Below are positions 41,987-57,336 of a DNA stretch of 64,000 nt, piece after piece (positions within the stretch are counted from its first letter, which is position 1; every line of letters starts with the position of its first letter). The DNA lies in the IMG/VR virus record IMGVR_UViG_3300029309_000009, positions 1 through 64,000 of that record; one strand, written 5' to 3'. Made by a program: the position numbers and the translations under genes. Origin of the DNA: an uncultured virus (IMG/VR IMGVR_UViG_3300029309_000009). Lineage: Duplodnaviria > Heunggongvirae > Uroviricota > Caudoviricetes. The notes below the pieces were generated by a model. It was not told the origin of the DNA and ran no database searches. It saw only the letters and a program-made list of their open reading frames with translations.

Positions 41987-42346
41987 ATGACATGGAAAGA
42001 TACACTAAGAAAAGCACCTTTTGATACAGGTCAAATGAGAAGGGATTCACTAAAAAATATGAAAGAAAAAAACCAAAGGCGTTTGGAAGATTTTCCAAAT
42101 ACCTTAGAAATATATGTGGATGAGGTATTGGAAGAAGCAATAAGAACCAATCCTAAATCTGATACGGTTGAAATTAAAATAAGTGTGGGTCTAAGAAGTG
42201 CGCTAAATGATTTAGTTGAAAACGGTATTAAGATTTCCAAGTTAGAACAAATAATGGAAGATGAATATAATGTTGATGATGTAAGAATTACTCTTACAGA
42301 TAGTAAAGCACGAATAACTTTTAGAGGAATTGGGATGCGTGATTAA
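41987..42346 (+). CDS. W-tag family protein (MTWKDTLRK)
   Basis: First gene of the + arm; shared N-terminal tag. Confidence 0.6.
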   Translation: MTWKDTLRKAPFDTGQMRRDSLKNMKEKNQRRLEDFPNTLEIYVDEVLEEAIRTNPKSDTVEIKISVGLRSALNDLVENGIKISKLEQIMEDEYNVDDVRITLTDSKARITFRGIGMRD

Positions 42347-42347
42347 T

Positions 42348-42542
42348 ATGACATGGGAAGATATAATAACTAAACAAAGCAGACCTAGAGAGGCACTTAA
42401 ACAGGTATTAAGCGGAGTTGAGATAACTACTCTTGATGAATTGATAGGTAAATTAAGTGAAGATAACGCAAAAGAAGTTAGAAGAATGATAGATTGGTAT
42501 GTGAAGGAATATAGTCAAAAAAACCCAAAGAATGAAAGGTGA
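42348..42542 (+). CDS. W-tag family protein (MTWEDIITK)
   Basis: ATG at 42348 after GTGA SD; tag. Confidence 0.55.
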   Translation: MTWEDIITKQSRPREALKQVLSGVEITTLDELIGKLSEDNAKEVRRMIDWYVKEYSQKNPKNER

Positions 42543-42547
42543 TTAAT

Positions 42548-42793
42548 ATGACATGGAAAGACGAGATTAGGAAGAATGAGCGATTTCTTACCGATATGAG
42601 AACTTACAAGCAAATGGGAATAATAGACCATTTCAAATCAATTGAAAGAATTAAGACTCTTGTAAAAGAAGGTGCTGGCGAATCAGATATTATAGAGGCA
42701 TTGAGCAATTTGCAAAAGTATCTTGCCAAGCAAAATGATTCGATTATTGATAAAATTCAATATGCTTATGAAGCAGGTATGAGGAATGCTTGA
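42548..42793 (+). CDS. W-tag family protein (MTWKDEIRK)
   Basis: ATG at 42548 after GGTGA SD; tag. Confidence 0.55.
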   Translation: MTWKDEIRKNERFLTDMRTYKQMGIIDHFKSIERIKTLVKEGAGESDIIEALSNLQKYLAKQNDSIIDKIQYAYEAGMRNA

Positions 42794-42825
42794 AAAAAAA
42801 TTACGGGAAAATTTTGGTGAGAAAA

Positions 42826-43269
42826 ATGTGGAAAAGATTGCTAAAGAATCAAGTGCTAAAAGGCACAATCCAAAACTATACTTTTGAAAGGAAAATAAGG
42901 AGAATGGATAAAGGAAATAATACTATGGTTACTTATGATTATGAAGATAGAGGCAAAGATTCCGATATTGAACTTGATTGGAATACTGTAATTGTTGAAT
43001 GGAGTATGAGTGTAGAAGAATATGATGATGGTTTAGAACTGAATGCTCCTCAAGTCCGAAAGGTGATTGTTGGTATTGACTTTATTGAAGATATAGGAGA
43101 AGAAGTTGAAACTTTAGCAGAAAATCTAGAATTAGAGACTACCGAAAATATCACGGTTGAAGAATTGGATAGAGTGGTCATGGGTTCCGTTATTATGCCG
43201 GAGGCCGATATTGAGATAGGGCAGAAGGATGGCAAATTTTACATCAAGAGTGTAAATATTAGTTGGTGA
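42826..43269 (+). CDS. W-tag family protein (MWKRLLK), acidic beta-rich
   Basis: ATG at 42826 after GGTGA SD; tag. Confidence 0.55.
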   Translation: MWKRLLKNQVLKGTIQNYTFERKIRRMDKGNNTMVTYDYEDRGKDSDIELDWNTVIVEWSMSVEEYDDGLELNAPQVRKVIVGIDFIEDIGEEVETLAENLELETTENITVEELDRVVMGSVIMPEADIEIGQKDGKFYIKSVNISW

Positions 43270-43296
43270 GATTAATCATTACAAGGAAGTGAAATT

Positions 43297-43782
43297 ATGA
43301 GTTGGAAAGAAATACTAAAAAACGATATGAAAAGAGTTAGAGATAAAGACAGAAGGCGTAATCCCGAAGAAAGGGATATGGTTGATATTGAACCTAAACC
43401 TAAAGAGGAACTACCTCCACCTTCTAAGAAACCATTTAATCCATTTGGCTCCGATGCAGGTAAGAGGGCAAGGGATAGTAAGAAACGTAGAGCAGAAAGA
43501 GAAAAAAGAGAAGCATTTGATTCTATGATGGATACTAAGCCAAGTAGTAGAGAATCAGATTTATTAGAAAGAGCAAGGAAATTAAAAGAACAAAGGGCGA
43601 AGGAAGGAGAGAAATTATCTGATGAAGATGACGAATTGCTTACTAGGGAACAAAGAATAGCAAGAATAAAAGCCCTAAAAAGAGGTCATGTAAAATCTCC
43701 AAGAATGGGAGTCGAAGGTGGCACAAAGGGAAGGGGCAGTAAAAGATACGGCAAAGGCTCAGAAGGATTTAGGGGTCAATGA
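43297..43782 (+). CDS. W-tag family protein (MSWKEILK), highly charged/disordered
   Basis: Tag; K/R/E/D-rich. Confidence 0.6.
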   Translation: MSWKEILKNDMKRVRDKDRRRNPEERDMVDIEPKPKEELPPPSKKPFNPFGSDAGKRARDSKKRRAEREKREAFDSMMDTKPSSRESDLLERARKLKEQRAKEGEKLSDEDDELLTREQRIARIKALKRGHVKSPRMGVEGGTKGRGSKRYGKGSEGFRGQ

Positions 43783-43887
43783 TATGACAAGGTGCAAACT
43801 ACTAGATTCGTGGTTAGATGTTAAGTCTAAAGAATTAGACAAGGCAGAAAAGAAAGCAGGTAAAGATTTGCTTACAGGTGAGAAAAA

Positions 43888-44316
43888 ATGACTTGGCAAG
43901 ATATATTGAAATCAAGAAATTTAAGTATGTTGCTTTATGATTTTTTGAATTACATGGTTGATAAAGAAGAATTAGTAAATAGATTAGTTGGCGCACCTTT
44001 TAGAGATAAAGACCAAGTTGAAGAATGGTTTGAAGGAAACTTTGATAATTTAGATAGGGGCTTTTTAGGTAAATTACGAATGTATTTAGATTCCCCATAT
44101 GATGATTCGGATTTTAGTCCTATTGAAATCTACACTAAAATAAATCCTAATGCTTCTGATGAAGAAGCGGCTAACTTCTTCAAAGAAGTCTATAATACAG
44201 GCAAGGTGGATAAGGGTTCTGAAAAAATTATATTTGAAATACTTGATAAAATTTCTAAATCAATTACCAAAGAAAGTATAGATATTTTTACAGGAAGAAA
44301 CTATCTAGGATATTAA
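43888..44316 (+). CDS. W-tag family protein (MTWQDILK)
   Basis: Tag; starts within 40-bp junction repeat. Confidence 0.6.
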   Translation: MTWQDILKSRNLSMLLYDFLNYMVDKEELVNRLVGAPFRDKDQVEEWFEGNFDNLDRGFLGKLRMYLDSPYDDSDFSPIEIYTKINPNASDEEAANFFKEVYNTGKVDKGSEKIIFEILDKISKSITKESIDIFTGRNYLGY

Positions 44317-44332
44317 TTACAGGTGAGAAGAA

Positions 44333-44689
44333 ATGACTTGGCAAGATATATTGAAAAATACAAATTTCGATTTATATGAAATCAGAAGCAGGTTTGGTAA
44401 AGAAACCGCAGAAGAAGTGGAAAGAATGATTTATCTTAGAGATAATGAAGATATATTGTTTGAATTGATTGATGACATAGAAAGAAATAAAATTAATTTT
44501 GGTCTTAAAGCCGCCACTAAAAATGCAGTAAACAATCTTAATCCATCAAGTAAATATGATGGTGATATTTTCTTTTATAACTTAGATTTAGACAAAAGAG
44601 AAAAATATGAAAGATTCAAGAAAAACCCGTCTGTTATTATTGATGATGAACTAAACGCTATGTTGTCAGGATTTGCAGGAGACCTTTAG
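44333..44689 (+). CDS. W-tag family protein (MTWQDILK)
   Basis: Tag; starts within second copy of 40-bp junction repeat. Confidence 0.6.
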   Translation: MTWQDILKNTNFDLYEIRSRFGKETAEEVERMIYLRDNEDILFELIDDIERNKINFGLKAATKNAVNNLNPSSKYDGDIFFYNLDLDKREKYERFKKNPSVIIDDELNAMLSGFAGDL

Positions 44690-44699
44690 GTGAAAAGAA

Positions 44700-45062
44700 A
44701 TGACTTGGCAAACAGTTTTGAAGGTTTTGACTCCTAGAATGTTTTTAGAAAATATTCGTAGTGTTATCGGTGGAGAAATTAGCGGTTCAAGTAGCAGGGC
44801 AGGAGATAGGTTTTTTTTAGATTCTAATAAAGGTAAAATTACCCTCAGTAGAAAAGGCTCATCACCCTACAATATTAGGCATTCTGATTTCAACATAAAC
44901 ACACATGACTTACAAAAAGTTCTAGATAGTGTTTTATCTAAATTAATTGGAGAAACTGAAAAGGTTGCAGGTGCGGTTACTACGGGAAGTCCGGCTCATT
45001 CCCATTTATTCCGCCCTACATTCGGAGGTGGAAAACGTGCCAAAGATGAAGAAGAAGACTAA
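44700..45062 (+). CDS. W-tag family protein (MTWQTVLK)
   Basis: Tag; AGGTGA SD. Confidence 0.6.
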   Translation: MTWQTVLKVLTPRMFLENIRSVIGGEISGSSSRAGDRFFLDSNKGKITLSRKGSSPYNIRHSDFNINTHDLQKVLDSVLSKLIGETEKVAGAVTTGSPAHSHLFRPTFGGGKRAKDEEED

Positions 45063-46041
45063 GACTAAAAATGGCAACACTGCTAAACAGGAGTTGAAAT
45101 CTACTAATTTTTTCAAACAGTTTCAAGAGTGGAAAGAATTAGAAGGAGTGGGATTTCTTCTAAGACATGGAATACAATCCTCAAATACTGACAAAAGAAG
45201 AAAAACCATGCCTTCTATATCGGGTTCTCCTAGAGGACATAGAGACCATCTGCCTAGACTTTTTGAAATTATGGACTTTGATGATTTCATAGGTGAAAAG
45301 GAAAAGGACTACATTAGGGCATATTTGAAATTCATTGATGCGGCTAAAGGAACAAAGGCAGACCCCGCTATGATTCCCTATACAGATAAAATCTACAACA
45401 GAGCAGGAAAGTTTGTAGGAACTAGGAAAGTCTACGGCCATTGGAAAACTGCAAACTTTGTAAAATATAGTAAAAAATACAAGGGGAGTTCTCCTGTTCC
45501 CGCTTCTTGGTATAGTTATGACGAAAGCAAACCGGCTACACCTCCCCCTCATCAAGCAATATACTCCAAGTCTAGCCCAAAGGGATTGAAAAGTATTCTA
45601 GAGGATGCTTTAAAGGAATTAGAAGATGGTGCTAATGTTAATTTTGAAATAACTAGGGTTTCTAATCCTAAAGAATTGTATAATTTATCTGAAGTGAGGG
45701 AATTTTTAGAAAGCCAATTGACTCCATCTTTTGTTAAAGAGGGCTTGATAAATGCGAAGGCTATCGCTTCTAATTTAGCAGGACAAAAATTTGATGTGTC
45801 CGGAGAAACTGAAGAAGCATTAGTTAGAAGATTGAGTGGTTTTTCTGAGGATGAAATTGCAGGAGATGTAGATTTCTTTACTGTTAAGGTTTCTCCCGCT
45901 ACTGTTGAAAGGGCATATCTAGCCTCTAATAAAAAGAAGGTTGGTGGGTTTTTCCTGCATGGAAGGGTTCTAGACAAAAGACCTAGAAAAGATGGAGAGC
46001 CGGTTGCTAAGTCTTGGTTAGAACTTTTAAAAGATTTTTAG
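44947..46041 (+). CDS. Hypothetical protein with C-terminal W-tag-like motif (KSWLELLK)
   Basis: 364-aa ORF (true start uncertain). Confidence 0.55.
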   Translation: MEKLKRLQVRLLREVRLIPIYSALHSEVENVPKMKKKTKTKNGNTAKQELKSTNFFKQFQEWKELEGVGFLLRHGIQSSNTDKRRKTMPSISGSPRGHRDHLPRLFEIMDFDDFIGEKEKDYIRAYLKFIDAAKGTKADPAMIPYTDKIYNRAGKFVGTRKVYGHWKTANFVKYSKKYKGSSPVPASWYSYDESKPATPPPHQAIYSKSSPKGLKSILEDALKELEDGANVNFEITRVSNPKELYNLSEVREFLESQLTPSFVKEGLINAKAIASNLAGQKFDVSGETEEALVRRLSGFSEDEIAGDVDFFTVKVSPATVERAYLASNKKKVGGFFLHGRVLDKRPRKDGEPVAKSWLELLKDF

Positions 46042-46050
46042 GTGAATAAT

Positions 46051-46203
46051 ATGAGTTGGAAAGATTCTATAAAAAAAGGAGTTGGAGATAGAGAGGAGGC
46101 TGCTGGACTTCTCTCTCAAGTTATAGAAGATATTAGAGATGGAAAAGAAATACTAATACTTGCTAGACTTAAACAGATTTTAGATTACTTGGAGGGTGAG
46201 TAA
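46051..46203 (+). CDS. W-tag family protein (MSWKDSIKK), 50 aa, not in ORF track
   Basis: Manual translation; AGGTGA SD; fills gap before TerS candidate. Confidence 0.55.
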   Translation: MSWKDSIKKGVGDREEAAGLLSQVIEDIRDGKEILILARLKQILDYLEGE

Positions 46204-46863
46204 ATGACAGTAACTCGCAAGCGTTGTAAGTTTTGCCAACATGAAAGGCGAAGTGAACTTGAAGAAGAACTATCTTCGATGAAAATTTCTTGTGATGACT
46301 TGGATAAGAGAGAAGGTTGGAGAAGCGGAACTGCTGCCCAACATCAAAGAAATCACATGGGAGATTATGAAAATAGTAGCAATCCTAAGTGTAAGTTTTG
46401 CACAGACCCATTAAGAAGCCACTACGAAAAAGCATTGAGTTCGGGAGAAGTCACTACTGAAGGAATAGCAGAAACTTTACAAATTTCTAAGGAACAGGTG
46501 CAACGCCATATGAAGCACCATTTGGCTCCCCTAGTGCAAAAATCTGCGGCTAGTATTATTGCTAAAAAAGAAATTAATGAAATTGATATGTTAAGTGTAA
46601 ATGTTCAGAAGTTAGATTCAAAGGTAAATGAATTGTTTAATCAAGACGATTTGAGCCATAAAGAAATTGATGCGTTAGTAAAACTAGCAAGAGAAGTCCG
46701 TGAGAGTTTGAAATATATTATGGAGTTCAAGGGTAAGTTGGTTCACAGAAGACAGGATACAATCATAGTCCATCAAATGCAAATTGTTCAGAAGGTCTTG
46801 GCACAAAACCATCCCGAAGTTTGGCTTGATGTAAAGAAGCAAATGCAGGAGGAATTACAATGA
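46204..46863 (+). CDS. Putative terminase small subunit
   Basis: Two CKFC...HTH...H-x3-H modules followed by coiled-coil oligomerisation region; upstream of TerL. Confidence 0.55.
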   Translation: MTVTRKRCKFCQHERRSELEEELSSMKISCDDLDKREGWRSGTAAQHQRNHMGDYENSSNPKCKFCTDPLRSHYEKALSSGEVTTEGIAETLQISKEQVQRHMKHHLAPLVQKSAASIIAKKEINEIDMLSVNVQKLDSKVNELFNQDDLSHKEIDALVKLAREVRESLKYIMEFKGKLVHRRQDTIIVHQMQIVQKVLAQNHPEVWLDVKKQMQEELQ

Positions 46864-47312
46864 GTTGGGAAAACTTACTGAAAAGGTGGGCGTATGGTGC
46901 CGATAATATTGTCGAATATTTACAATCCGTTAGGCGGCAAATAGATTTAGTTTTAGATTCTGATAGGGGATTTAATCAAAAAATAAAGGAAATGAAAGAA
47001 GAAATCAAAGCCATGACTAAGGAACGATTTGATAGAATGAAAAATAATAAGAAAACAAGTGTGCAATATAGACTTGCGAAGGAATATTTTGAAGAAGGTA
47101 GTATGTTGTATGAAAGACTTGTAAATAAATTCGGCCACTATGCGGCAAGGAGGGCTAGAATCCCCAATGAGATAATTAGAGAGATGGCTCGACATGAACA
47201 TGACATGGAAATATTAAGTTTATTTGGTTTAGAAGAACCAAAAAAATATACTGTTGATATGATGGAAGATTGGTATATGTCGGGACATTATGATGAATAT
47301 GAGGACGCATAA
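46860..47312 (+). CDS. W-tag family protein (MSWENLLK)
   Basis: Tag; GGAGG SD. Confidence 0.6.
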   Translation: MSWENLLKRWAYGADNIVEYLQSVRRQIDLVLDSDRGFNQKIKEMKEEIKAMTKERFDRMKNNKKTSVQYRLAKEYFEEGSMLYERLVNKFGHYAARRARIPNEIIREMARHEHDMEILSLFGLEEPKKYTVDMMEDWYMSGHYDEYEDA

Positions 47313-47324
47313 GGAGGAATTACA

Positions 47325-47504
47325 ATGAATTGGGAAGGAATAATTAAATCAACAATGCCTAAAAGATTTAATGAAATTACAGATGCACGTGGCATGTTAA
47401 AACTGATGGTAGAAGAAAACCCAAGATATAAGGGGGATTACCTGCTTGAAAAAATCCTAAAATATTTAGAAGATTATTTAGATAGAACGGAGAAATTGCA
47501 ATGA
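47325..47504 (+). CDS. W-tag family protein (MNWEGIIK), 59 aa, not in ORF track
   Basis: Manual translation; GGAGG SD; ATGA overlap with next gene. Confidence 0.55.
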   Translation: MNWEGIIKSTMPKRFNEITDARGMLKLMVEENPRYKGDYLLEKILKYLEDYLDRTEKLQ

Positions 47505-47803
47505 GTTGGTCTAATTTGTTAAAAAGAATCCGTAGAGAGCAAAGAAAACGCTTTCAAGTCACCGATTATGACTCAGAATTAAACAAGAAAATAGGAGAAA
47601 TGAGTAAAAAAATGAAAGAAATAGAGTCTGAACTATTTTCTCTAAGCGAAAAAAAGAAAAACGCCACAACTTTTCAAGAAAGTCAAGAAATTTCTAAAAA
47701 AATAGAAGAAACTGCCAAAAAATTGAAAGAAATTAGGAAAAAAATGGGTAAAATAGAGGCGACTAGAATAATTAGGCGTAGAGGAAGTAGAGATTTTAGG
47801 TGA
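47501..47803 (+). CDS. W-tag family coiled-coil protein (MSWSNLLK)
   Basis: Tag; basic coiled coil. Confidence 0.6.
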   Translation: MSWSNLLKRIRREQRKRFQVTDYDSELNKKIGEMSKKMKEIESELFSLSEKKKNATTFQESQEISKKIEETAKKLKEIRKKMGKIEATRIIRRRGSRDFR

Positions 47804-47808
47804 TTTGA

Positions 47809-49815
47809 GTGTGGAATCTGCTTTTGAAAAGAACTACTCCTCTTGATATTCTAAGAGGAGGGTTAAGTCCATATTTAGATGATGCAGATTGGGAAAGAAG
47901 GCTGGAAGAAATTGATAATTATCGTGATTCTGAGAGTCGTAGCCAAAAAAAGAGAGATTTCAACAAATTGATTGAAGAACTTGGCAAATATTCAAAGAAT
48001 AAAGACGGATTTATTAGAGAATTTAAGGAAAATTTTAGAGAAGGCATGGATATTTCTATATTTAGGGCAAAAATGGACTTAGCCTTGCAAAGATATGGAA
48101 CAAAAAAGCGTCAGACCTCTGTTTCTCCTAGAGCAAAACTACTTTCTCTTGCTAGAGAAATAGAGGAGTCTATGGATAGTTCTAAAATGAATGAATTTAT
48201 GTCTTTAGCGGAAAAACATCCAAAAATAATAATAGAAAGTGAAACTTTAAGGCAATTAAAAAAGCAATTGGAAAAATTATCCAAAGGAAGCATGCTTTAT
48301 TTTAAAACAGAGACTCCACCTGCCGAAGTTTTAGACGCTTTTCTTAAATTAATGGGTGGCGAAGTAATAAATTACGGAAAAACAGATAGTGGAGAAACAA
48401 TACAAACTATACTCTATCCTAATCTTTCTGTTGGCGAATGGATGAAAAGATGGAATGCTTCATTTGAAGAATTAAAACAAAATATAAGTCAAAATCCCGA
48501 AAGAGTCAAAACATTAAAGCCACTTTTAGAGGAAATAAAAGACAGTCGCCCGATTATACTTCAGGCAGGAATAAAAGAAGATGTTCCGCTAGATTCTGTT
48601 AAATTTTATTCTGTGGAAGGCTTTACCGACCAATCAATGAGAGAATTTCTTGAAATTATAAACAAAACTGGTGGAGGCGTTGATAAATTTATTCCTTCCG
48701 GAGTTTCTTTAGAGTTAGAAGGGATTAATGTTAAAGGCTCTAGTATAAAAGAATTAATTTCTCCGTCTAAACAAGGAGGAACTATTAGAACTAATCCGTA
48801 TTTGTCTCTACTATTAGAAGCGATAGGGGAAAGTGATTGGTTTTCTACGTTATTGAGCAGAACTAAACAATCTAAAATAATAAACAAGGGTAGGTTAATT
48901 GCGCTAATAAATATGGATGCCGAAAGAACTTTTAACGAAAGTCTAAGCACTAGTCCTATCTTTGGATTAGAAGTCAATGAGGATGAAGCACCGGAAGAAT
49001 TAGATAAATACAAGCGATGGTTTCGTAGTCAGATAGACATTGCCTCTACTAGTAATTTACTACAAGAAGAAATAACTCCTACTATATCTTCTAAAGTCAA
49101 AACTATATTAGATGATGCCATAGAAAAATTTGGTCTTGAAAGGTTCTTAGTTAGGCCAAATTTGCATAAAGTAAGCAGTATTGATTTTGAACCCGTAACA
49201 ATAAAAGGAATATCTAGATTTAAATTAGTTGATGGAGAAAAAGAATTGACTTCTAAACAAATAGAAGCCTTATCAAACAAAATTACGCAGGAACTTCAAA
49301 AGGAAGTTAGTTCAGCGCAAAGAGATACTTCAGAAGAACTTCCGACAGGCTTCATAGCCTCTCTTGCTTCCGATAGTGCGCTTTTACAGTCTATTAAATC
49401 AGAAACAGCCGTCAATAGACTATTAGCAGCAGGTTCATTTCAACAACTAATGAGTTCTTATCCTTTGATTAAAACTAGTAAAAAATCGGCAAAGATAACT
49501 ACTCTTTCTGCTTTATCTCCGGAGAATCTGATTATATTCTTTGTTAAGTTAGATGATTTGACAGGCTTCTCAACACAATCTAATTCTGTTCTAGAGTATT
49601 ATGAAAGAATAGATGCGTCTAAAGATTTTAAAGAGAGAAAAAGGATAATCTCACAATTAGAAAAATCTATTGAAGAAAAAATAATATCTTTTAGAAATGC
49701 TTTGCAAGTATTTTTTGAAGAAAATTTGAGGAAGTTGATTTCACAAAGAAGACTTCCGAAGAAGTTATTAGATAAACTCATTGACAAGGGAATAGTTACG
49801 GAGGTTAGTGTATGA
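47809..49815 (+). CDS. Large helical protein with W-tag (MWNLLLK), possible internal virion protein
   Basis: 668 aa, no recognised domain; AGGTGA SD. Confidence 0.6.
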   Translation: MWNLLLKRTTPLDILRGGLSPYLDDADWERRLEEIDNYRDSESRSQKKRDFNKLIEELGKYSKNKDGFIREFKENFREGMDISIFRAKMDLALQRYGTKKRQTSVSPRAKLLSLAREIEESMDSSKMNEFMSLAEKHPKIIIESETLRQLKKQLEKLSKGSMLYFKTETPPAEVLDAFLKLMGGEVINYGKTDSGETIQTILYPNLSVGEWMKRWNASFEELKQNISQNPERVKTLKPLLEEIKDSRPIILQAGIKEDVPLDSVKFYSVEGFTDQSMREFLEIINKTGGGVDKFIPSGVSLELEGINVKGSSIKELISPSKQGGTIRTNPYLSLLLEAIGESDWFSTLLSRTKQSKIINKGRLIALINMDAERTFNESLSTSPIFGLEVNEDEAPEELDKYKRWFRSQIDIASTSNLLQEEITPTISSKVKTILDDAIEKFGLERFLVRPNLHKVSSIDFEPVTIKGISRFKLVDGEKELTSKQIEALSNKITQELQKEVSSAQRDTSEELPTGFIASLASDSALLQSIKSETAVNRLLAAGSFQQLMSSYPLIKTSKKSAKITTLSALSPENLIIFFVKLDDLTGFSTQSNSVLEYYERIDASKDFKERKRIISQLEKSIEEKIISFRNALQVFFEENLRKLISQRRLPKKLLDKLIDKGIVTEVSV

Positions 49816-52172
49816 ATTTGGAACAGTTAGCCCAAGAACTTTCTTCTCTTGGTAGGAAAGAAAAAGAAGAAAGAAAGGAAGAAATTTATGAAGAAATGCA
49901 GCAAGTCTTTGGAGATGAAGCAGATGCAAAGTTTGATGAGTTAGAGTCTTTAGAAACAGGCAAATACAATTACACTGAAAGGTTCCAAGACGCACTAAAA
50001 GGTATTAAGATAAAAACTAAAGGTAATCAAGCAATAACTTTAAATCAAGCCATTAAATCTAAACTGCCTAAAACTATACGTATTTCTTCTAGCACTAATA
50101 ACCCCGATGTGGATATACCCTTACTAGAAAAAAAATTAGAAGAAGTGTTAAAGGGAACTAAAGCAACTATAAGTGAGGGGATGCAACCATCTAGAAATCT
50201 AATAATTTCTAATATTGAAGTATTGTTGAAGGCGATTGATGACCTCAAAGCATACGCAATAACAGGAAGAAGGAGAGCAAAAGGAATAAAAATTGACAGT
50301 TTCTTAGGGGGTCTTCCTCTTGGGCCTGTGGAAAATAGAGATGTAGTGTATAAGTTTTGGGAAGATGTTTCTAAAAAATATGACGATGTAGAAAAGACAC
50401 TAAAAGGAGTATTGGATTCTTTACAGAAATCAGTTTCTAAATATAATATAACGGTATTCGGAGAAAGCCTATTTCCAAATATGCCACAATTCAGAAAAAA
50501 ATTAAAATCACTACAAAAATTTGAAAATGTAGATTTGAGTTACGTTAGAGAATTTCAACCAATTAGCATACAAGTAGAAGAACCATTAGGACAGGCATTA
50601 GGGTATATTGGAACTTTAGAAGTTATTTACAACTTACACAAAGAAATGTTAGAGCAAGAAAAAAGAGAAACGGGAGAAATTGCAGGAGATGTAAATTCTC
50701 AAATGCAGATGGAATTAAGAACTAAATCTAAAAATAATTATGGCGACCAATTTTCTATGATAGACCCTACATTAACTAATTCTTCGGAAGATGACGAACT
50801 ACTAAATCAAATAAGAAGTCTATCTGAAGATTTAGACCCTTTGCTTGTTTATTATTTCAATTCTCCAAAATCAAATCTTTCTAAGAACATAATTGTATTG
50901 ACTAGAGAGGGCAAAGAAGAAATCAAACAATATATTGAAGAAGCAGCAGAAAATATGTATCCTCAATATTCTGACTTAGAGATAATCATATCACCTAAAA
51001 TAAAGAAAGACATTGAAACCTTTTCCAATACTCTAATTTCTGAAAGAGGAAAATTTTTCTTACCTTATACGCTAAAAGAATTATTAGCGGGTGCTGAAGT
51101 CGAAGGAGAAAATAACATTGGGGATATTTTAGAATTTTTAAATGTCATAGGAGATATTCTTTTTGAAATACCTCCAAGAATACCTATAAAATCTGTAAGA
51201 GGTAAAATGGGTGTAGAGGAAGATTTGGGACTACCTCAGACCGCTACTATGGTAGCGGGATACAAGGGAACCCCTGTTAAGTCAGAAGACATTAAAGAAT
51301 TTAGAGAAGAACTTACAAAATTAGTTAAGGCGATTGATGATTATTATATATCTCCTAGTTATAGTGGAAAATTACCAATAGCAGAAATAGACTTTACTAA
51401 AAAGAGCGGTGCAATAAAAATTACTGCTGGCGCAGTTAATTTAGGGGTTCAAAGCCTAGACGGAACAGCGTATAAAACCATAATAAATAATAGATTTAAT
51501 GTAAAAAAGAAAGACATTGATGATGTAAAGGATTTTTTGCAAACCGTTATTTCCGGAACAGGAGAGTTAGATGAAAAATTGACTCAGAAAGGAGAGGATG
51601 CCTCTACTGCTTTGACAAACATATTTGGATTAAAAGGAACTCCATTTGAAGAAGTTAATGATAATCATATGTCTGCTATAATTAATGCTCTATACTCCGA
51701 AATGGGAGAGGATTTAGGAGAGAGAAAATTTAGAGGAAAACTGATTTCTAACAGGGCAGACCGTTATGAGAACTCTTATGATAAAGGAGAGCCGCAACCA
51801 TTATTTGTTTTACCGGCATTTTTAATGAGACATAAAGGGTTGATAGAAAGAAGCGGAATGAAAAATTCTGTTGGTGAATTAAAAGATTTGCTTCGTAGGG
51901 CAGAATCCTTGCCTGTAATTTTGAAATCTTTACTAAAAGCCCACGATATTGTTAGAGAACTAAAGGGGTTGAGACCTGTATATGGGTTTAGACCATTGAC
52001 CTTGAACCACTCCGAAGAAGTCATAACAAAAATGTATGGAGAATTTGGCGTAGATTTATCCTATTCTGAAATAGATAAAATAGTGACAGAAGTAGATTCT
52101 TTCTCTAGTATAGCCAAGTCTTTAGGAATATCAGAAGAAATTGTATATCAAGTAAAAGCGCAGTTTAGGTGA
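49812..52172 (+). CDS. Large hypothetical protein, possible internal virion protein
   Basis: 786 aa; C-terminal HTH-like SFSSIAKSLGISEEIVYQVK. Confidence 0.6.
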   Translation: MNLEQLAQELSSLGRKEKEERKEEIYEEMQQVFGDEADAKFDELESLETGKYNYTERFQDALKGIKIKTKGNQAITLNQAIKSKLPKTIRISSSTNNPDVDIPLLEKKLEEVLKGTKATISEGMQPSRNLIISNIEVLLKAIDDLKAYAITGRRRAKGIKIDSFLGGLPLGPVENRDVVYKFWEDVSKKYDDVEKTLKGVLDSLQKSVSKYNITVFGESLFPNMPQFRKKLKSLQKFENVDLSYVREFQPISIQVEEPLGQALGYIGTLEVIYNLHKEMLEQEKRETGEIAGDVNSQMQMELRTKSKNNYGDQFSMIDPTLTNSSEDDELLNQIRSLSEDLDPLLVYYFNSPKSNLSKNIIVLTREGKEEIKQYIEEAAENMYPQYSDLEIIISPKIKKDIETFSNTLISERGKFFLPYTLKELLAGAEVEGENNIGDILEFLNVIGDILFEIPPRIPIKSVRGKMGVEEDLGLPQTATMVAGYKGTPVKSEDIKEFREELTKLVKAIDDYYISPSYSGKLPIAEIDFTKKSGAIKITAGAVNLGVQSLDGTAYKTIINNRFNVKKKDIDDVKDFLQTVISGTGELDEKLTQKGEDASTALTNIFGLKGTPFEEVNDNHMSAIINALYSEMGEDLGERKFRGKLISNRADRYENSYDKGEPQPLFVLPAFLMRHKGLIERSGMKNSVGELKDLLRRAESLPVILKSLLKAHDIVRELKGLRPVYGFRPLTLNHSEEVITKMYGEFGVDLSYSEIDKIVTEVDSFSSIAKSLGISEEIVYQVKAQFR

Positions 52173-52176
52173 AAAT

Positions 52177-52386
52177 ATGTGGCAAGAAATTTTGAAAAAG
52201 AAAAAGAAAAAGAAGAAGTATAAAGCCCCTGCCGGAGTTTATACTAAACCGAAACTAAGAGAAAGAATACATGCTACTTTGCTTAATCAAAATACTCATG
52301 GAACAGCAAAGGGGAAGTGGTCTGGTCGTAAGTCGCAGGAATTGAATAGAAGGTATCAAGAGGCAGGTGGCGGTTTTGTCAATTAA
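52177..52386 (+). CDS. W-tag basic protein, DUF5872-like N-half
   Basis: MWQEILK; YTKPKLRERI...GKWSGRKSQ...YQEAGGG. Confidence 0.6.
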   Translation: MWQEILKKKKKKKKYKAPAGVYTKPKLRERIHATLLNQNTHGTAKGKWSGRKSQELNRRYQEAGGGFVN

Positions 52387-52669
52387 GTGGGTTTCTATTT
52401 TAAAGAGAAAAAAATTAACTGATGCTCAAAAGGACATGGTTGAATGGAGTAAAGAAGATTGGGTTGATATGGCTAATCCCAAAGGAAAGAAAAAGAAAGG
52501 AACTTACAAAAGAGGAAGATATGCTCCTAAAGCAGTAGCCCAAAGTCTTACTCCACAACAAAGAGCGGCTGAAAATAGAAAGAAAAGAGAAGGCCGCAAA
52601 AAAGGAAAACAACATGTTCCTAGAACAAAAGCAGGAAAAAAAGTTTATCGCAGAGTGGAAGGTAGATGA
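52367..52669 (+). CDS. Basic protein, DUF5872-like C-half (KWVSILK)
   Basis: QKDMVEWSKEDW...GRYAPKA...LTPQQRAAENRKKR. Confidence 0.55.
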   Translation: MAVLSIKWVSILKRKKLTDAQKDMVEWSKEDWVDMANPKGKKKKGTYKRGRYAPKAVAQSLTPQQRAAENRKKREGRKKGKQHVPRTKAGKKVYRRVEGR

Positions 52670-53097
52670 ATTGGAAAGAAATCCTAAAGAAAGATATGTC
52701 CTATTGTGTTTGTAGTGGGCCAAATAAAACTAAGGGATTTACTTGTAAAGCACACTGTCGTAGTAAAGAAATGAAAAAGGCTGACCCGAAAAAAGGAACG
52801 GGTAAAAAGCCAAAAGGTTCTACAAGAAGACTATATACAGATGAAAACCCAAAAGATACTGTTCCTGTAAAATTTAAAACAAGAAAAGATGTTCAAGAAA
52901 CATTTAGCAGTAGTGCGTTTAAATCTAAATCCCATAAAAGGCAATCACAAATAATTAACTTAGTTGAGCAAAGATTACGAGCCGCAGTAAAAAATGCTAA
53001 AGACCCTAAAACAAAAAAAAGGTTAAAAGCGGCACATACTTACGCCAAACAAAGAAAGGAAGCGAGTAAGCAAAAAACAAAGAGGATGAGAACATGA
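52666..53097 (+). CDS. W-tag basic protein (MNWKEILK)
   Basis: Tag; KKPKGSTRRLYTDENPKDTV motif; very basic. Confidence 0.6.
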   Translation: MNWKEILKKDMSYCVCSGPNKTKGFTCKAHCRSKEMKKADPKKGTGKKPKGSTRRLYTDENPKDTVPVKFKTRKDVQETFSSSAFKSKSHKRQSQIINLVEQRLRAAVKNAKDPKTKKRLKAAHTYAKQRKEASKQKTKRMRT

Positions 53098-53534
53098 AAT
53101 GGAAAACAGTTTTGAAAATGCACTGCGGAACTAACAGAGAAAAAATTGATACCGAGCGAGAAGAATTTGAAAAATTAACAGGAAACCAAAACAGAATTGA
53201 TGCCAATAAAGACGGTAAAATTAGCGGTGAAGATTTTAGGATGCTCAGAGATAAAGTTAGCAAGAGAGAATTAAAAGATGGAGATACCGTAGTTACTCAT
53301 GAAGAATGTAAAGAGGCTGAAGAAAAAATTCTAGCCATTAATAAAAAAGAAGGCGGTGCTTGCTCTTTTGAAAAGAATATTCTCAAGGAATTAGGAAAGG
53401 AATATGGTGAGAAAAAACTTGAAATGGTAGTCGAAGATATGATAGAAAGGGGAACTATAAAGCGTCACAAGTATGGGGATTTATATACAGATGAGGAAGA
53501 AGGAGATGAAGATGAAGATGAAGATGAAGAATAG
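53094..53534 (+). CDS. W-tag protein (MKWKTVLK) with EF-hand loop
   Basis: DANKDGKISGED EF-hand consensus; acidic tail. Confidence 0.6.
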   Translation: MKWKTVLKMHCGTNREKIDTEREEFEKLTGNQNRIDANKDGKISGEDFRMLRDKVSKRELKDGDTVVTHEECKEAEEKILAINKKEGGACSFEKNILKELGKEYGEKKLEMVVEDMIERGTIKRHKYGDLYTDEEEGDEDEDEDEE

Positions 53535-53558
53535 TAGAGCAAGAGGGGCGTTTACTGC

Positions 53559-53882
53559 ATGACTTGGGACTATTACAATATAGAAAAAAGAGGTAAAAGT
53601 TACCATAGAAGGAAATTTATTGAAAGGCACAATTTGCCCATTAAAAGGCTATTGGGCGAATTAGAAGAAAGGTATGAAGATGTTCATTCTGAATTGATTG
53701 CATCTTCAACAGGCACAGTAAGAGATTTATATGGTTTTGATAAACAAATGAAAATGGTTAAGGAGTTACAAGATGTTCTTATAGAAATAACAAAAGATAT
53801 AGAAAAACAAAAAAGCAAACTAAAAACATTACCTGCTGATAAAGTAAAAGGTAAAGGAAAAGGACAAAAGAGGACAAATTAA
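53559..53882 (+). CDS. MTWDYY-type tagged protein
   Basis: Shared MTWDYYNI start. Confidence 0.55.
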   Translation: MTWDYYNIEKRGKSYHRRKFIERHNLPIKRLLGELEERYEDVHSELIASSTGTVRDLYGFDKQMKMVKELQDVLIEITKDIEKQKSKLKTLPADKVKGKGKGQKRTN

Positions 53883-53891
53883 GGTGATTAA

Positions 53892-54164
53892 ATGTCATGG
53901 GAAAATGTCCTAAAAAAAGAAATAGATTTGGTTTTGCCAAGAGGAAAACAGAAGGTTCTCAAGGCAGAAGATAAAGACTATGACAGAGGACTTCTCGTTA
54001 AACTTCTAAAGAATGGCGGATATGAAATGGCATATTGGGCTGGTGAACATAAGCCCTATCCTGTTGAAGTATTGGTTGATGGAAAGTCAATAAAGAAAGA
54101 TGCTAAGAAAGTTACTATGAAATTTCATCCCGAAATGGAGGAGAACAGAGATAAGAAGGATTGA
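53892..54164 (+). CDS. W-tag family protein (MSWENVLK)
   Basis: Tag; AGGTGA SD. Confidence 0.6.
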   Translation: MSWENVLKKEIDLVLPRGKQKVLKAEDKDYDRGLLVKLLKNGGYEMAYWAGEHKPYPVEVLVDGKSIKKDAKKVTMKFHPEMEENRDKKD

Positions 54165-54370
54165 TTTTTGTGGATTGGCGTATTATTCTAAAAGATTGGA
54201 GAGATAAAGCGAGGGGTGACTTAGATGCACCGGAAAGCACTATCATTTTACAGCAATCTCTATTTTATATGGAAGAAGTCAAAAAGATGCTACAAAAGAA
54301 AAATCCTAACATACCCGATATAATTAATTTTTTAGAATATAATATTAAAATATTAAAGGAGGAATTATAG
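54161..54370 (+). CDS. W-tag family protein (DWRIILK)
   Basis: Tag; probable GTG start at 54170. Confidence 0.5.
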   Translation: MIFVDWRIILKDWRDKARGDLDAPESTIILQQSLFYMEEVKKMLQKKNPNIPDIINFLEYNIKILKEEL

Positions 54371-54699
54371 TGAGTTGGAAAAAAATTCTAAAAATAGATG
54401 AGATAGATATGGAATCTTCTATCAGTATGGCTACAAAATACTTAGATGAAATAGAAGGGTATGCTTCATACTATTATGGTGCTGGATATTCTCCCGATTT
54501 TGACGATGAGGGGGAGGCCGATACTTTTCAAAACCAAATATACAAAGATATTGAAACCATGAATAGATTATTCAAAAACCCTACTAAAGAAAATTTAGAA
54601 AAAATAGAAACAATGTCAAATGCCTTAGCCCAAGATATTGAATCTGAACATAACCCACTAGAAGTAATTCCTTCCTTTGATATTCAGTATAGAGAGTGA
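54370..54699 (+). CDS. W-tag acidic protein (MSWKKILK)
   Basis: Tag; GGAGG SD. Confidence 0.6.
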   Translation: MSWKKILKIDEIDMESSISMATKYLDEIEGYASYYYGAGYSPDFDDEGEADTFQNQIYKDIETMNRLFKNPTKENLEKIETMSNALAQDIESEHNPLEVIPSFDIQYRE

Positions 54700-55058
54700 T
54701 AGTTATGTCTTGGCAAACTATTCTAAAGAAGAAGCCCAAAAGTGCTAAGTCAAGGGCTAAAGAAAGAGCCAAAAAGAAAGGACTCAAAGGAATAAATAAA
54801 CCTCAGAGGCTAAAAGATGATTCGGATAAATCTCATCATGTTATGGCCTTTGAAGGAAAAAAGGCCAAGTATATCAAATTCGGACAAAAGGGGGTTAAGA
54901 CAAATCAAACTGCCGGACAAAGAAAGGCTTTCAAATCTCGCCATGCTAAGAACATCAAGCGTGGAAAAATGTCTGCGGCATATTGGGCTAACAAAGTAAA
55001 GTGGAGTCCTAGTAAGACTAAAGAAAAGAAAAATAAAAATTGGCGAAAGGGGAGTTGA
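54696..55058 (+). CDS. W-tag basic protein (MSWQTILK)
   Basis: Tag at internal ATG; IKFGQKG...RKAFKSRHA...SAAYWANKVKW pattern recurrent in marine phage head regions. Confidence 0.6.
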   Translation: MIVMSWQTILKKKPKSAKSRAKERAKKKGLKGINKPQRLKDDSDKSHHVMAFEGKKAKYIKFGQKGVKTNQTAGQRKAFKSRHAKNIKRGKMSAAYWANKVKWSPSKTKEKKNKNWRKGS

Positions 55059-55288
55059 ATTTGCCTAGATTTTCTTCTTTAAAGCAAGCCTATCACCTTT
55101 TTAAAAATAAAAAGGAAGTATTTAGGCAGATAGCAGGAGTATATGGGGTTCCTCCTAATTTTCATCCATATAAAAAAATGAGAGAAAAGGGTGTCTCACA
55201 TGACGATGCTATTTTAGGAATTAATGACCCAAGATATGCTTTGAAGAAGTGGCAAACAACTCTCAAAAATCAAAAAGGAAGTAGTTAA
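55040..55288 (+). CDS. Hypothetical protein ending in W-tag-like motif (KKWQTTLK)
   Basis: 82-aa ORF abutting TerL. Confidence 0.5.
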   Translation: MAKGELNLPRFSSLKQAYHLFKNKKEVFRQIAGVYGVPPNFHPYKKMREKGVSHDDAILGINDPRYALKKWQTTLKNQKGSS

Positions 55289-56743
55289 ATGGAAATTAGC
55301 GATTTCAATTTAGAACATCAGATGGATTTTGAACTATCTAGAAACTCATTTCCATATTTTTTTCAGCATGTCTGTGGCCCTGCTCTTGGATTAGAAACCT
55401 ACTATTATCCAAAATATATGGAAGAATGGTTAGAACTAATGCACAGCACTCAAAGAACGGTTTTAATTTGTAGCAGAGACCACGGTAAATCTGTATTTAT
55501 GCACTGTTGGGTTATTTGGAATTTAATTTTTCAGCCTAAAGGCTATCAAATGGTCTATATTTCTTCTAATCAAAAGCAGACTTTAGTGCATATGCGAGAA
55601 ATTGACAAATATTTCACTCACCCTATGCTTCAAAGGTTTAAGCCGATAAGGGGATGGTCAGTAGGACATATTAGATTAACTAATGGAAATGAACTATTAG
55701 CAAGGTCAGTGGGTTCGCAAATTCGTGGTCTGCACCCAAATGAAATAATTATTGATGACCCGCTAAAAGAGTTTTCAATGTCGGCTATCCAAAAGGTTAC
55801 AGATTGGTTTTATAGCGATATGATACCGACTTTACATCATTCTGCATCTTTACGGGTTATAGGAACGCCATTTAGTTATACGGATATTTATGCCCAACTT
55901 GCAGAAAATGACGTTTATGAAGTCAGAACCTATCCTTGCCTTAACTCCTTAAATGAACCATTGTGGCCCGATAGATGGGATTACAATTCTTTAATGTTAA
56001 GAAAAGGAGAGATAGGCACAATAGCATTTACTAGAGAATATCTTTGCGTTCCTATGTCTACTGGAACTTCTCTGTTCAATCCCGAATATCTTGATAATTC
56101 TAAATCTAAAGACTATATTTTGAAGCCTCAAAGAAGAAAAGATTTCAGATATTATGTCGGGGTAGACCCTGCAATATCTACTGATGGTGATTACAATGTT
56201 ATCACTGTTTTAGAAGTAGATGAAAATGATAATAAGACTGTAATATATGTTGATAGGGCAAAAAATGTAGACTTTAGGCAGAACATAGAGAAGGTCAAAA
56301 TGATAGGTAAAATTTTCAATCCGGAAGTGGTTTTATTTGAAACTAATACTTTTGCCAAATCATTTACTCAAGAACTAAAGACTGTTTCTGATTTGAATGT
56401 TCACGATTTCACCACCACTAGAAAAAGAAAGCAAGAGATTATTCTCAATCTACAAATGAATTTTGAAAATGGTAAAATAAGATTGCCTTATGGTAATGAA
56501 GAAAGTAGAAGGGTTACATCTACTTTAATAGAGGAATTATCTATGTTTGCCATTACTGAAAGCGGTAGATTTGAAGGAATAGGGGCGCATGACGATATGG
56601 TTATGAGTCTCGCTTTGGCTAATGCTGCTACTCATACTTTGAGCGAGAAGTTTATTCATTTAGATGACTTGGGAATCTTTGACGATAAACCAATTGCTCC
56701 TAAGCCTTTTGCTGGAAGGGGAATTATGGGACTGAACTTTTGA
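55289..56743 (+). CDS. terL: Terminase large subunit
   Basis: Walker A SRDHGKS, IRG, Walker B IIIDD, motif III IGTP, nuclease GVDPA...HDDMVMS. Confidence 0.93.
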   Translation: MEISDFNLEHQMDFELSRNSFPYFFQHVCGPALGLETYYYPKYMEEWLELMHSTQRTVLICSRDHGKSVFMHCWVIWNLIFQPKGYQMVYISSNQKQTLVHMREIDKYFTHPMLQRFKPIRGWSVGHIRLTNGNELLARSVGSQIRGLHPNEIIIDDPLKEFSMSAIQKVTDWFYSDMIPTLHHSASLRVIGTPFSYTDIYAQLAENDVYEVRTYPCLNSLNEPLWPDRWDYNSLMLRKGEIGTIAFTREYLCVPMSTGTSLFNPEYLDNSKSKDYILKPQRRKDFRYYVGVDPAISTDGDYNVITVLEVDENDNKTVIYVDRAKNVDFRQNIEKVKMIGKIFNPEVVLFETNTFAKSFTQELKTVSDLNVHDFTTTRKRKQEIILNLQMNFENGKIRLPYGNEESRRVTSTLIEELSMFAITESGRFEGIGAHDDMVMSLALANAATHTLSEKFIHLDDLGIFDDKPIAPKPFAGRGIMGLNF

Positions 56744-56752
56744 GGTGATATT

Positions 56753-57037
56753 ATGTCTTGGAAAAACATACTAAAGGATGAGCCATTTGATGACTTTAGA
56801 TTTAATATGTCTTCTATGCACCAAGAAATGCTTCAAAAAGAAAAGGAAATGGTCATCAAAGATGCTCAGTTTGAAATTGAAAAACTATTAGATTACAAAG
56901 ATAAGTTATTACAGTATAAGCAAAATGAAAGGTTAGACAAATTTGTTGATGCAGATTTGCCATTAAGACCACTTGATAATGTAATCGCTGCTATCAATAA
57001 ATGGATTTCTTCTATGGAAGATAATATGGGAATGTGA
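56753..57037 (+). CDS. W-tag family protein (MSWKNILK)
   Basis: Tag; GAGGTGA SD. Confidence 0.6.
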   Translation: MSWKNILKDEPFDDFRFNMSSMHQEMLQKEKEMVIKDAQFEIEKLLDYKDKLLQYKQNERLDKFVDADLPLRPLDNVIAAINKWISSMEDNMGM

Positions 57038-57041
57038 TATT

Positions 57042-57335
57042 ATGGCGGATTGGAAAGATAAACTCAAAAGAACTAAGCCCCCTAAAAAATATGGTATGAA
57101 AAGAGGAAAAAAATACGGAACTACTGTTTTTGGAGAAATAAAAGAAAAGGAAACTTCGCATACAAGAGCAAGAGATATGCCTAAGAGTATAATATTTGAC
57201 TATTTTAGAATATACCAAAGACTACACAATAGAGTTCCTACGCTAAAAGAAATAGTAGAAGAAGAAGGTCGTTCATTAACTTCAGATGAAATAGAAGATT
57301 ACTACGATGAATACAAAAGAATGGGAGGAAATTAA
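57042..57335 (+). CDS. W-tag-like protein (MADWKDKLK)
   Basis: Tag variant. Confidence 0.55.
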   Translation: MADWKDKLKRTKPPKKYGMKRGKKYGTTVFGEIKEKETSHTRARDMPKSIIFDYFRIYQRLHNRVPTLKEIVEEEGRSLTSDEIEDYYDEYKRMGGN

Positions 57336-57336
57336 T

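Follow-up and report, generated by a model that had tools for sequence, protein, structure and literature searches.

Tagged genes in the analysed window

The window analysed in this study comprises positions 1 to 64,000 of a viral contig of 85,884 bp (IMG/VR record IMGVR_UViG_3300029309_000009), which, judging by its gene content, comes from a magrovirus. Between positions 41987 and 57335 its plus strand encodes many otherwise dissimilar proteins that begin with a short peptide of the form W-x-x-[ILV]-[LI]-K, referred to below as the tag. The original prediction for this DNA held that more than 20 proteins of this "head-region" block share such an N-terminal tag and that it might target them to the capsid. 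All 23 N-termini listed in it were found at their positions on the plus strand, 18 with the strict motif directly behind the start codon and five with a variant. When all six frames of the window were scanned with the pattern relaxed slightly, 23 matches were obtained on the plus strand (22 of them within 42829-56759) and eight on the minus strand, the latter all away from gene starts.

The block opens with three open reading frames (ORFs) carrying variant tags: 41987-42346 (119 aa, MTWKDTLRK), 42348-42542 (64 aa, MTWEDIITK) and 42548-42793 (81 aa, MTWKDEIRK). Strict tags follow at 42826-43269 (147 aa, MWKRLLK), 43297-43782 (161 aa, MSWKEILK, with a basic, low-complexity body), 43888-44316 (142 aa, MTWQDILK), 44333-44689 (118 aa, again MTWQDILK) and 44700-45062 (120 aa, MTWQTVLK). 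Next come a conserved protein of approximately 335-364 aa (45037-46041, start inferred), which has no N-terminal tag and terminates in a copy of the motif (KSWLELLKDF), and a 50-aa ORF with the variant MSWKDSIKK (46051-46203). Behind an untagged, Cys-rich 219-aa protein (46204-46863), whose conserved family of 39 contains no tagged member, lie four further strictly tagged ORFs: 46860-47312 (150 aa, MSWENLLK), 47325-47504 (59 aa, MNWEGIIK), 47501-47803 (100 aa, MSWSNLLK) and 47809-49815, which starts with GTG and encodes the largest tagged protein of the window (668 aa, (M/V)WNLLLK).

A conserved 786-aa protein (49812-52172; family of 56, none tagged) separates these genes from a second series, all of it on the plus strand. 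This comprises 52177-52386 (69 aa, MWQEILKKKKKKKK, very basic, matching phrog_17747), 52376-52669 (about 97 aa, basic, matching phrog_14910, with an inferred TTG start giving MSIKWVSILK), 52666-53097 (143 aa, MNWKEILK, basic), 53094-53534 (146 aa, MKWKTVLK, with an acidic tail; family of 58, 47 tagged), 53559-53882 (107 aa, with the extended N-terminal form MTWDYYNIEK), 53892-54164 (90 aa, MSWENVLK), 54170-54370 (about 66 aa, GTG start, (M/V)DWRIILK), 54370-54699 (109 aa, GTG start, (M/V)SWKKILK, acidic) and 54705-55058 (117 aa, MSWQTILKKKPKS, basic, matching phrog_7595). A small ORF with a copy of the motif near its C-terminus (55061-55288, ending in KKWQTTLKNQKGSS) directly precedes the untagged large terminase, TerL (55289-56743). 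Two more tagged ORFs, 56753-57037 (94 aa, MSWKNILK) and 57042-57335 (97 aa, variant MADWKDKLK), lie behind TerL, the former between TerL and the untagged portal protein (58836-60467).

Approximately 29 ORFs are thus present in 41987-57335, and only the 219-aa protein, the 786-aa protein and TerL lack the motif at both ends. The label "head-region" is loose: most of the genes with a tag are found before TerL and adjoin the divergent control region, where early genes could be placed as well. As regards the body types that had been proposed, the coiled-coil-like body was recovered (47501 ORF), while the EF-hand-like loop of the 53094 ORF scored 22.6 bits in Pfam against a cut-off of 25.4 and remains sub-threshold. 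At the upstream border of the block, an exact 16-nt direct repeat, TTGGAGAAATTAATAT, occurs at 41922-41937 and 41973-41988; the second copy provides the first tagged gene with its ribosome-binding site and start, and no start codon stands behind the first copy.

Conservation of the tag in related genomes

IMG/VR searches with TerL and the capsid protein yielded 160 related loci, in which ORFs were called by one uniform procedure. In 162 related loci and the whole contig the tag pattern was detected in 572 of 2669 plus-strand ORFs and in none of the 521 minus-strand ORFs, and the TerL and portal families are untagged; the tag is absent from all three places from which it had been reported missing. 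At least one tagged ORF was present in 76 of the 80 TerL loci (median 7, maximum 16), and the remaining four contain almost no sequence upstream of TerL. The plus strand carries the tag on 340 of the 695 ORFs that lie within 10 kb ahead of TerL, and on 155 of 444 at +2 to +6 kb. Composition predicts roughly 1e-4 chance occurrences per ORF, i.e. fewer than one in the 2669 plus-strand ORFs, so on this estimate a chance origin of the tag is excluded.

The logo of the tag consists of M; S (44%), N (13%) or T (11%); W; K (35%), E (22%), Q (18%) or F (12%); D (33%), N (18%) or E (17%); I (77%) or V (15%); L (78%) or I (16%); and K. Behind this Lys conservation ends abruptly, and nothing is conserved in the residues that follow. 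A motif-free test of N-termini gave the same picture: Trp (background 1.0%) occurs at residues 2-5 in 718 of 2319 unique plus-strand proteins vs 14 of 467 minus-strand ORFs. Among the 718, those with hydrophobic residues at +3 and +4 have Lys at +5 in 515 cases, Arg in 11 and another residue in 24. Lys is preferred over Arg at this position by 47:1, whereas the K:R ratio of the proteome is 2:1.

That the codons of the tag vary had also been claimed, and this was confirmed on a larger scale. In 533 tags the synonymous usage of Ile, Val, Leu and Lys codons is about as in the rest of the genes, and the tags are encoded by 472 distinct 24-nt strings, which indicates that selection acts on the peptide. 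A DNA-level repeat or promoter element was rejected as an explanation on account of these scrambled codons. The second codon is biased: Ser is encoded by AGT in 85% of 236 cases vs 23% elsewhere, and Thr by ACT in 78%. Together with Asn (AAT), the bias at this position gives a second codon of the form A-N-T, which could reflect a preference in translation initiation or be left over from a shared ancestry.

A second magrovirus clade (GC content 44%, TerL 36-38% identical) contains few tag-like genes, in which Trp lies deeper in the protein (MSAWYELLKKKK, the start of the homologue of the window's 53892 ORF; MKPIDAAWRVLKEE; and AWSLLKAL). It follows that tagged genes have expanded in the window's own lineage. 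Clade 2 also encodes a protein of 1926-2006 aa between portal and protease-scaffold (L170:2501-8521, L213:2789-8569), and one such giant internal protein may replace many small ones.

The tag as a module on unrelated proteins

To compare the bodies of the proteins, the first 12 residues were removed from 2786 unique proteins, which then formed 832 BLAST families. As many as 218 of these include tagged members (526 unique tagged proteins), and no tagged protein was found in the families of TerL, portal, capsid, protease, the 840-aa ligase-domain protein and tail proteins. Treated in this way, the tagged proteins of the window are mostly singletons or fall into separate families; the claim that their bodies are unrelated therefore holds at the BLAST level.

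The modular character of the tag is illustrated by the phrog_7595-type family of basic proteins (54705-55058 in the window), which has thousands of relatives. Tagged forms of 117-120 aa start with MSWxxILKKKPKS, while untagged forms of 105 aa, including gp69 of Roseobacter phage CRP-13, start with the body; in one pair the difference is essentially a prepended MSWEDILKR. The occurrence of untagged homologues in bacteriophages indicates that the tag is a prepended module.

Only three of 150 representative tagged proteins have a Pfam match (E ≤1e-4): PAP2, DUF6943 and DUF6321, the last of which spans residues 24-92 of a 96-aa protein. The PAP2-superfamily phosphatase domain (E 7.2e-10) is located in a tagged protein of 191 aa (L047:285-857). 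Apart from these, Pfam and PHROGs searches of the tagged proteins revealed no function, the few PHROGs matched all being of unknown function. A transmembrane-like segment was identified in only two of 526 tagged proteins, and for this reason a signal peptide or transmembrane anchor was rejected. Strongly basic proteins make up 25% of the tagged set vs 8% of untagged ORFs. In the window, the basic proteins close to TerL belong to conserved families, and several others have no family member in the loci covering their position, which points to a conserved core beside a hypervariable tagged set. Taken together, we regard it as practically certain that the tag is a functional peptide module.

Copies of the motif in the protease-scaffold and at other C-termini

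The protein encoded at contig positions 66456-67676 (406 aa), directly before the capsid gene at 67690, is an HK97-type (MEROPS S78) prohead protease fused to a scaffold. It matches Pfam PF04586 (Peptidase_S78) over residues 25-178 (36.8 bits, cut-off 21) as well as the PHROG head maturation protease, and its AlphaFold2 model has a beta-rich domain (14-156) and long helices (180-220 and 298-366). In its C-terminal tail (MDDVANMSWADLNRLAGN) M392 and W394 are invariant in all 37 sequences compared, although these represent two clades and, apart from the tail, differ strongly in the scaffold half. Clade 1 has the tail (E/N)-M-[D/S/E]-W-[S/A]-D-[I/L]-[H/N]-[K/R], and clade 2 has M-[D/S/G/N]-W-[D/S]-[D/E]-V-H-x-L; both look like the pattern of the tag, M-[S/T/N]-W-x-[D/N/E]-[I/V]-[L/I]-K, a resemblance that the original prediction did not mention.

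With a position-specific scoring matrix (PSSM) of the tag, 23,944 non-N-terminal positions were scored, taken from every ORF of the contig. The small ORF before TerL ranked first, the 364-aa protein second and the scaffold tail third; the first two hits, too, are C-terminal peptides of plus-arm proteins, and all three hits are at most about 14 residues from the C-terminus. The first two of these C-terminal copies, which the original prediction did not include, are located in the window at 55250 and 46015. The family of the 364-aa protein (45037-46041) has a C-terminal S-W-x-[D/E]-hydrophobic-hydrophobic motif in 28 of 31 members, the K of the N-terminal tags being replaced by R, W or L. The strict Lys thus appears to be specific to the N-terminal version, as would be expected if it were needed for removal of the tag and not for docking.

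Also beyond the earlier observations is an extended form, MTWDYY...ILK, present in four ORFs: the one at 53559 and those at 62443-62781 (112 aa, MTWDWYGDILKDE), 63017-63280 (87 aa, MTWDYYNDKEIKK) and 63286-63525 (79 aa, MTWDYYNIKK), all on the plus strand. In the family of the 62443 ORF (78 members) compact MTWEYILKE is mixed with extended MTWDYYxxGxEFILKE, and W and ILK are kept in both. Among these genes lies an untagged 79-aa ORF (62778-63017, plus strand, family of 70) with a C-terminal end, MDSVANMSFEEMAKIIEKAG, much like the tail of the protease-scaffold; possibly the scaffold anchor is used by this second small protein as well.

Conserved Lys sites in the capsid protein and the protease-scaffold

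Outside the catalytic domain, K17, the segment F166-x-I168-L169-K170, K374, M392 and W394 of the protease-scaffold are invariant in the 37 sequences of both clades. K17 lies in F-x-I-L-K just before the protease domain, K170 where protease and scaffold join, and K374 at a distance of about 30 residues from the C-terminus. In the AlphaFold2 model the linkers that contain K170 (161-178) and K374 (367-380) have low confidence, and residues 394-402 of the tail form a helix.

The capsid protein (67690-69033) has the HK97 fold: its AlphaFold2 model (confidence score pLDDT 75.4) gives as top Foldseek matches the capsids of Mic1, SU10, HK97 and T5 (E 2.8e-14 to 1e-9), and it matches Pfam SU10_MCP (28.9, cut-off 24.1). 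In all 80 close homologues the N-terminus consists of a helix (YINTIxDLE), a variable loop and [ILV]-L-K-Q-[AS]-G. In 90 homologues, down to 27% identity, the Lys column contains K in 78, R in 5, Q in 4 and A in 3, with L/I/F/V at P3 in 77, a variable P2 and mostly A at P1'. The model places K29 in a stretch with pLDDT <50 (residues 17-45), behind helix 8-16, and the only solved sequence relative, the Mic1 capsid protein (6j3q_A), begins after the segment comprising the helix and the Lys. The hydrophobic-hydrophobic-Lys end of the tag matches these conserved sites in the capsid linker and at the domain borders of the protease-scaffold. HK97-type proteases can cut after Lys, a point for which our literature search gave no usable passage; on the mature N-terminus of related haloarchaeal virus capsid proteins nothing relevant was found in PMC8651126 and PMC11965321.

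Several comparisons proved uninformative. Co-variation of tag and capsid site across clades gave no signal, the clade-2 site (ELLK) being too similar to inform, and within clade 1 P3 of the tag (I in 77%) does not track P3 of the capsid site (mostly L). Single distant capsid proteins used as queries of viral contigs gave almost no matches. Complex prediction for the capsid protein with a tagged protein returned a score of 0.00, which is no answer and speaks neither for nor against binding.

Genome layout and neighbouring genes

The assignment to magroviruses is based on a tailed-virus structural module combined with a near-complete replication module of archaeal type, and on three hallmarks: a second DNA ligase in the structural module, a chaperonin, and PolB in two ORFs. 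Philosof et al. 2017 (PMC5434244) describe magroviruses with a second ligase in the structural module, group B1 with a split PolB, and count these viruses among the most abundant viruses of ocean-surface archaea. The split of PolB on the minus strand of the window (12685-13578 and 14606-16333, with small ORFs and a run of 10 N at 13791-13800 in between) fits that of group B1, and the virus probably belongs to group B or B1.

The minus arm (approximately 6.9-41.6 kb) encodes, besides PolB, RFC, a clamp-like protein, an ATP-dependent DNA ligase, Cpn60, a ThiF-like protein and nucleases of the ERCC4 and PD-(D/E)XK types. A search of genome contigs with the viral Cpn60 revealed no relative. The ThiF/E1-like protein (184 aa) is encoded at 28505-29059, and a homologue of Kyanoviridae Gp96 (PF23790, E 3.5e-17) at 40535-40831, both on the minus strand of this replication arm. 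Two overlapping minus-strand ORFs at 37706-38175 have a common string, GGMNMSKRFPKLHRV, and adjoin a run of 10 N (38078-38087); this is probably an assembly or scaffolding artefact, or else a local duplication.

The plus arm begins at 41987, after a 420-bp divergent spacer, runs through TerL and portal and continues past the window with a ligase-domain protein, the S78 protease-scaffold, the capsid gene and tail genes. The ligase-domain protein (840 aa, contig positions 63899-66421, L081:1899-4421), which contains an ATP-dependent DNA ligase domain and is untagged, lies between portal and protease; a ligase inside the head module was already noted by Philosof et al. 2017 (PMC5434244). Between TerL and portal a conserved protein of about 451-461 aa (57307-58692, family of 71) has an HNH-endonuclease-like region (phrog_5046, residues 296-427), and may be an HNH protein associated with the terminase, not a mobile element. 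A scan of the tagged block for bacterial-type promoters and terminators gave background levels, such a scan not being applicable to an archaeal virus.

A possible label for loading proteins into the capsid

In our opinion the most likely role of the tag is that of a label for loading proteins into the capsid. The capsid-targeting interpretation of the original prediction appears plausible and is partly supported. As to how such a label might work, the balance tips slightly towards a tag that copies the capsid-binding tail of the scaffold and is removed after its Lys by the head protease. This proposal is founded on the existence of the tag, on selection at the peptide level, on its modularity, on its confinement to the arm of virion genes and on the features it shares with the scaffold tail and the Lys sites; from these we infer binding, cleavage, encapsidation and ejection.

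While the prohead assembles, a tagged protein would dock where the scaffold tail docks, inside the assembling shell, probably on the inner face of the HK97-fold capsid protein and possibly at its short N-terminal helix. As the conserved sites suggest, the S78 prohead protease would then cut after the Lys of hydrophobic-hydrophobic-Lys sites, removing the N-terminal peptide of the capsid protein, splitting protease, scaffold body and scaffold tail from one another, and clipping the octapeptide off the cargo. More speculatively, the fragments would leave, the head would keep a variable set of soluble, often basic proteins, and this cargo would probably exit together with the DNA. A bolder proposal, which we put forward tentatively and consider doubtful, is that magrovirus heads are programmable containers, open to any protein that bears the eight-residue copy of the scaffold tail, and that they inject at least 20 rapidly changing effectors (of hundreds of families in the whole lineage) into Marine Group II archaea, the packaged set forming a pre-packaged "early proteome" that would partly replace early gene expression.

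A number of observations weigh against the capsid-loading scheme. The likeness of tag and tail is that of a short motif: on the tag PSSM the tail reaches 3.2 bits, whereas the median of real tags is 25.1, and at the L or I position of the tags it has H or N. Clade 2 keeps both the tail and the Lys sites with few tag-like genes, which means that the tail does not imply a cargo system. The tripeptide [ILV][LI]K is common in a proteome rich in K, I and L, a conserved copy (VVIK) lies in a core strand of the protease itself, and in the bodies of tagged proteins the tripeptide is not depleted (71 vs 76.3 expected, z -0.7), so that selective avoidance of internal cutting is not visible. Most tagged genes open the plus arm and adjoin the divergent control region, where early genes, too, are typically placed; a PAP2 phosphatase domain, of a family that is usually membrane-bound, is found in one tagged protein; and 23-27 cargo species per genome, one of them 668 aa long, would be many for a genome of about 86 kb.

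Some of these observations might be explained differently. It is conceivable, if unlikely, that the tag is a docking peptide for a common partner other than the capsid shell, such as the portal, the terminase, the conserved 786-aa or 840-aa proteins, Cpn60 or the protease alone; in the last case it would act as a pro-peptide, removed late, that holds proteins inactive until then. The likeness of tag and tail would then mean only that both bind the same partner. A shared peptide at either end of a protein and a strict Lys do not by themselves give the identity of the receptor, and the virus does encode Cpn60, a ThiF/E1-like protein and large conserved untagged proteins inside the tagged block. 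However, the protein that bears the motif as its tail is the protease-scaffold, a type known to interact with the capsid protein, Cpn60 and ThiF are encoded in the replication arm, where no gene is tagged, and a pro-peptide of eight residues is unlikely to inhibit 218 unrelated folds. Quite unlikely, in our view, is that the tagged genes are early or host-takeover genes whose tag is a linear motif or amphipathic helix directed to a host structure (membrane, ribosome, replisome, or a degradation or chaperone system). The block does begin right behind the divergent intergenic region (41.6-42.0 kb) and contains small, fast-evolving orphans, 147 of the 150 representatives having no Pfam match and many being singletons; W/I/L plus K at a protein end resembles membrane-targeting helices, and one tagged protein is PAP2-like. 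Yet tagged genes occur also between TerL and portal and deeper in the structural module, whose strand and tight operon packing they share, the scaffold protein ends in the same motif, a 47:1 preference of K over R is not required by a membrane or charge role, and three hydrophobic residues are few for membrane binding.

The common N-terminus might also be mainly historical, if genes had been born or captured behind a reused start, a recombination cassette made up of the ribosome-binding site and the first codons, whose peptide has little function. The strong bias of the second codon (AGT for Ser in 85% vs 23%, ACT for Thr in 78%), the duplication of the 16-nt ribosome-binding-site/start string at 41922 and 41973, and the similar appearance of the ribosome-binding sites upstream of tagged genes would fit such an origin. 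We nevertheless consider it very improbable, given the scrambled I, V, L and K codons (472 of 533 tag DNA strings distinct), the end of conservation exactly at K, and the C-terminal copies, the extended hairpin-like form and the deeper clade-2 motif, none of which could be produced by a 5' cassette.

Most magrovirus genes have no known function. If the capsid-loading reading is correct, one rule would assign a location and a role (packaged, probably injected effectors) to at least a quarter of the late-arm genes, and the hypervariable tagged set would mark a site of the virus-host arms race. Among archaeal viruses it would be the first capsid-targeting system to be described, would have arisen by a simple evolutionary route, the copying of the scaffold's own anchor peptide, and would provide an eight-residue tag for loading proteins into HK97-fold shells. 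We found no published description of the magrovirus tag, Table S1 and Figures S1-S3 of Philosof et al. 2017 lying outside the search; the term "N-terminal" does not occur in PMC5434244 and PMC11706807, papers retrieved on N-terminal motifs in magroviruses were not relevant by title or abstract, and a search of the literature on capsid targeting in archaeal viruses returned nothing.

Comparison with known systems

The tag invites comparison with the capsid-targeting sequence (CTS) of bacteriophage T4, a short N-terminal leader on unrelated, often basic proteins (IPI, IPII, IPIII and Alt), the tag being 8 aa long. The T4 leader is removed by the prohead protease, and T4 gp21 cuts after Glu. The two peptides have no sequence similarity, the protease encoded here is of the S78 HK97 type, and the host is an archaeon. 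Moreover, the tag is present on approximately 23-27 genes per genome and in 218 body families vs a handful of proteins in T4, resembles the C-terminal tail of the scaffold and occurs also at C-termini. Because protease family and motif differ, the magrovirus tag would be an analogue and is not a member of the T4 CTS system. The T4 CTS of about 10 aa is the only conserved part of highly diverse internal proteins and directs them into the scaffolding core (PMC3012670), and foreign proteins can be targeted with it (PMC9024508).

An N-terminal capsid signal is also known from DarB of phage P1, where 30 residues suffice to send a heterologous protein into the capsid and the protease resembles HK97 gp4 (PMC9024508). 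That signal is longer, belongs to one protein and operates within the stepwise assembly of Dar proteins; no octapeptide is shared by many proteins. In giant phages (SPN3US, phiKZ-like) the prohead protease recognises one motif in many different proteins inside the head, which are cut there and ejected (PMC10052503, PMC7411985). These phages have genomes of at least 240 kb, a T4-like protease and long propeptides, and no short tag at the extreme N-terminus.

For the maturation protease gp4 of phage HK97, Duda, Oh and Hendrix reportedly described a C-terminal capsid-targeting tail in 2013. As in that system, an S78-family protease here has a short C-terminal peptide, the invariant M-x-W tail with its predicted helix, which would be the targeting element. 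The difference is that in magroviruses the motif of the tail seems to have been copied onto hundreds of protein families, while to our knowledge no set of unrelated cargo proteins copies the gp4 tail in HK97.

Finally, the loading peptides of encapsulins and bacterial microcompartments are short N- or C-terminal peptides, separated from the cargo by a linker, which dock it inside a shell, and encapsulin shells have the HK97 fold. The tag might likewise be a docking peptide: its motif occurs at N- and C-termini, the tail of the scaffold is a predicted helix, and the Foldseek matches of the capsid model include encapsulin shells. The encapsulin and microcompartment peptides have other motifs, are not removed by a protease and serve cellular nanocompartments, whereas the magrovirus tag would be a cleavable label for the loading of virions.

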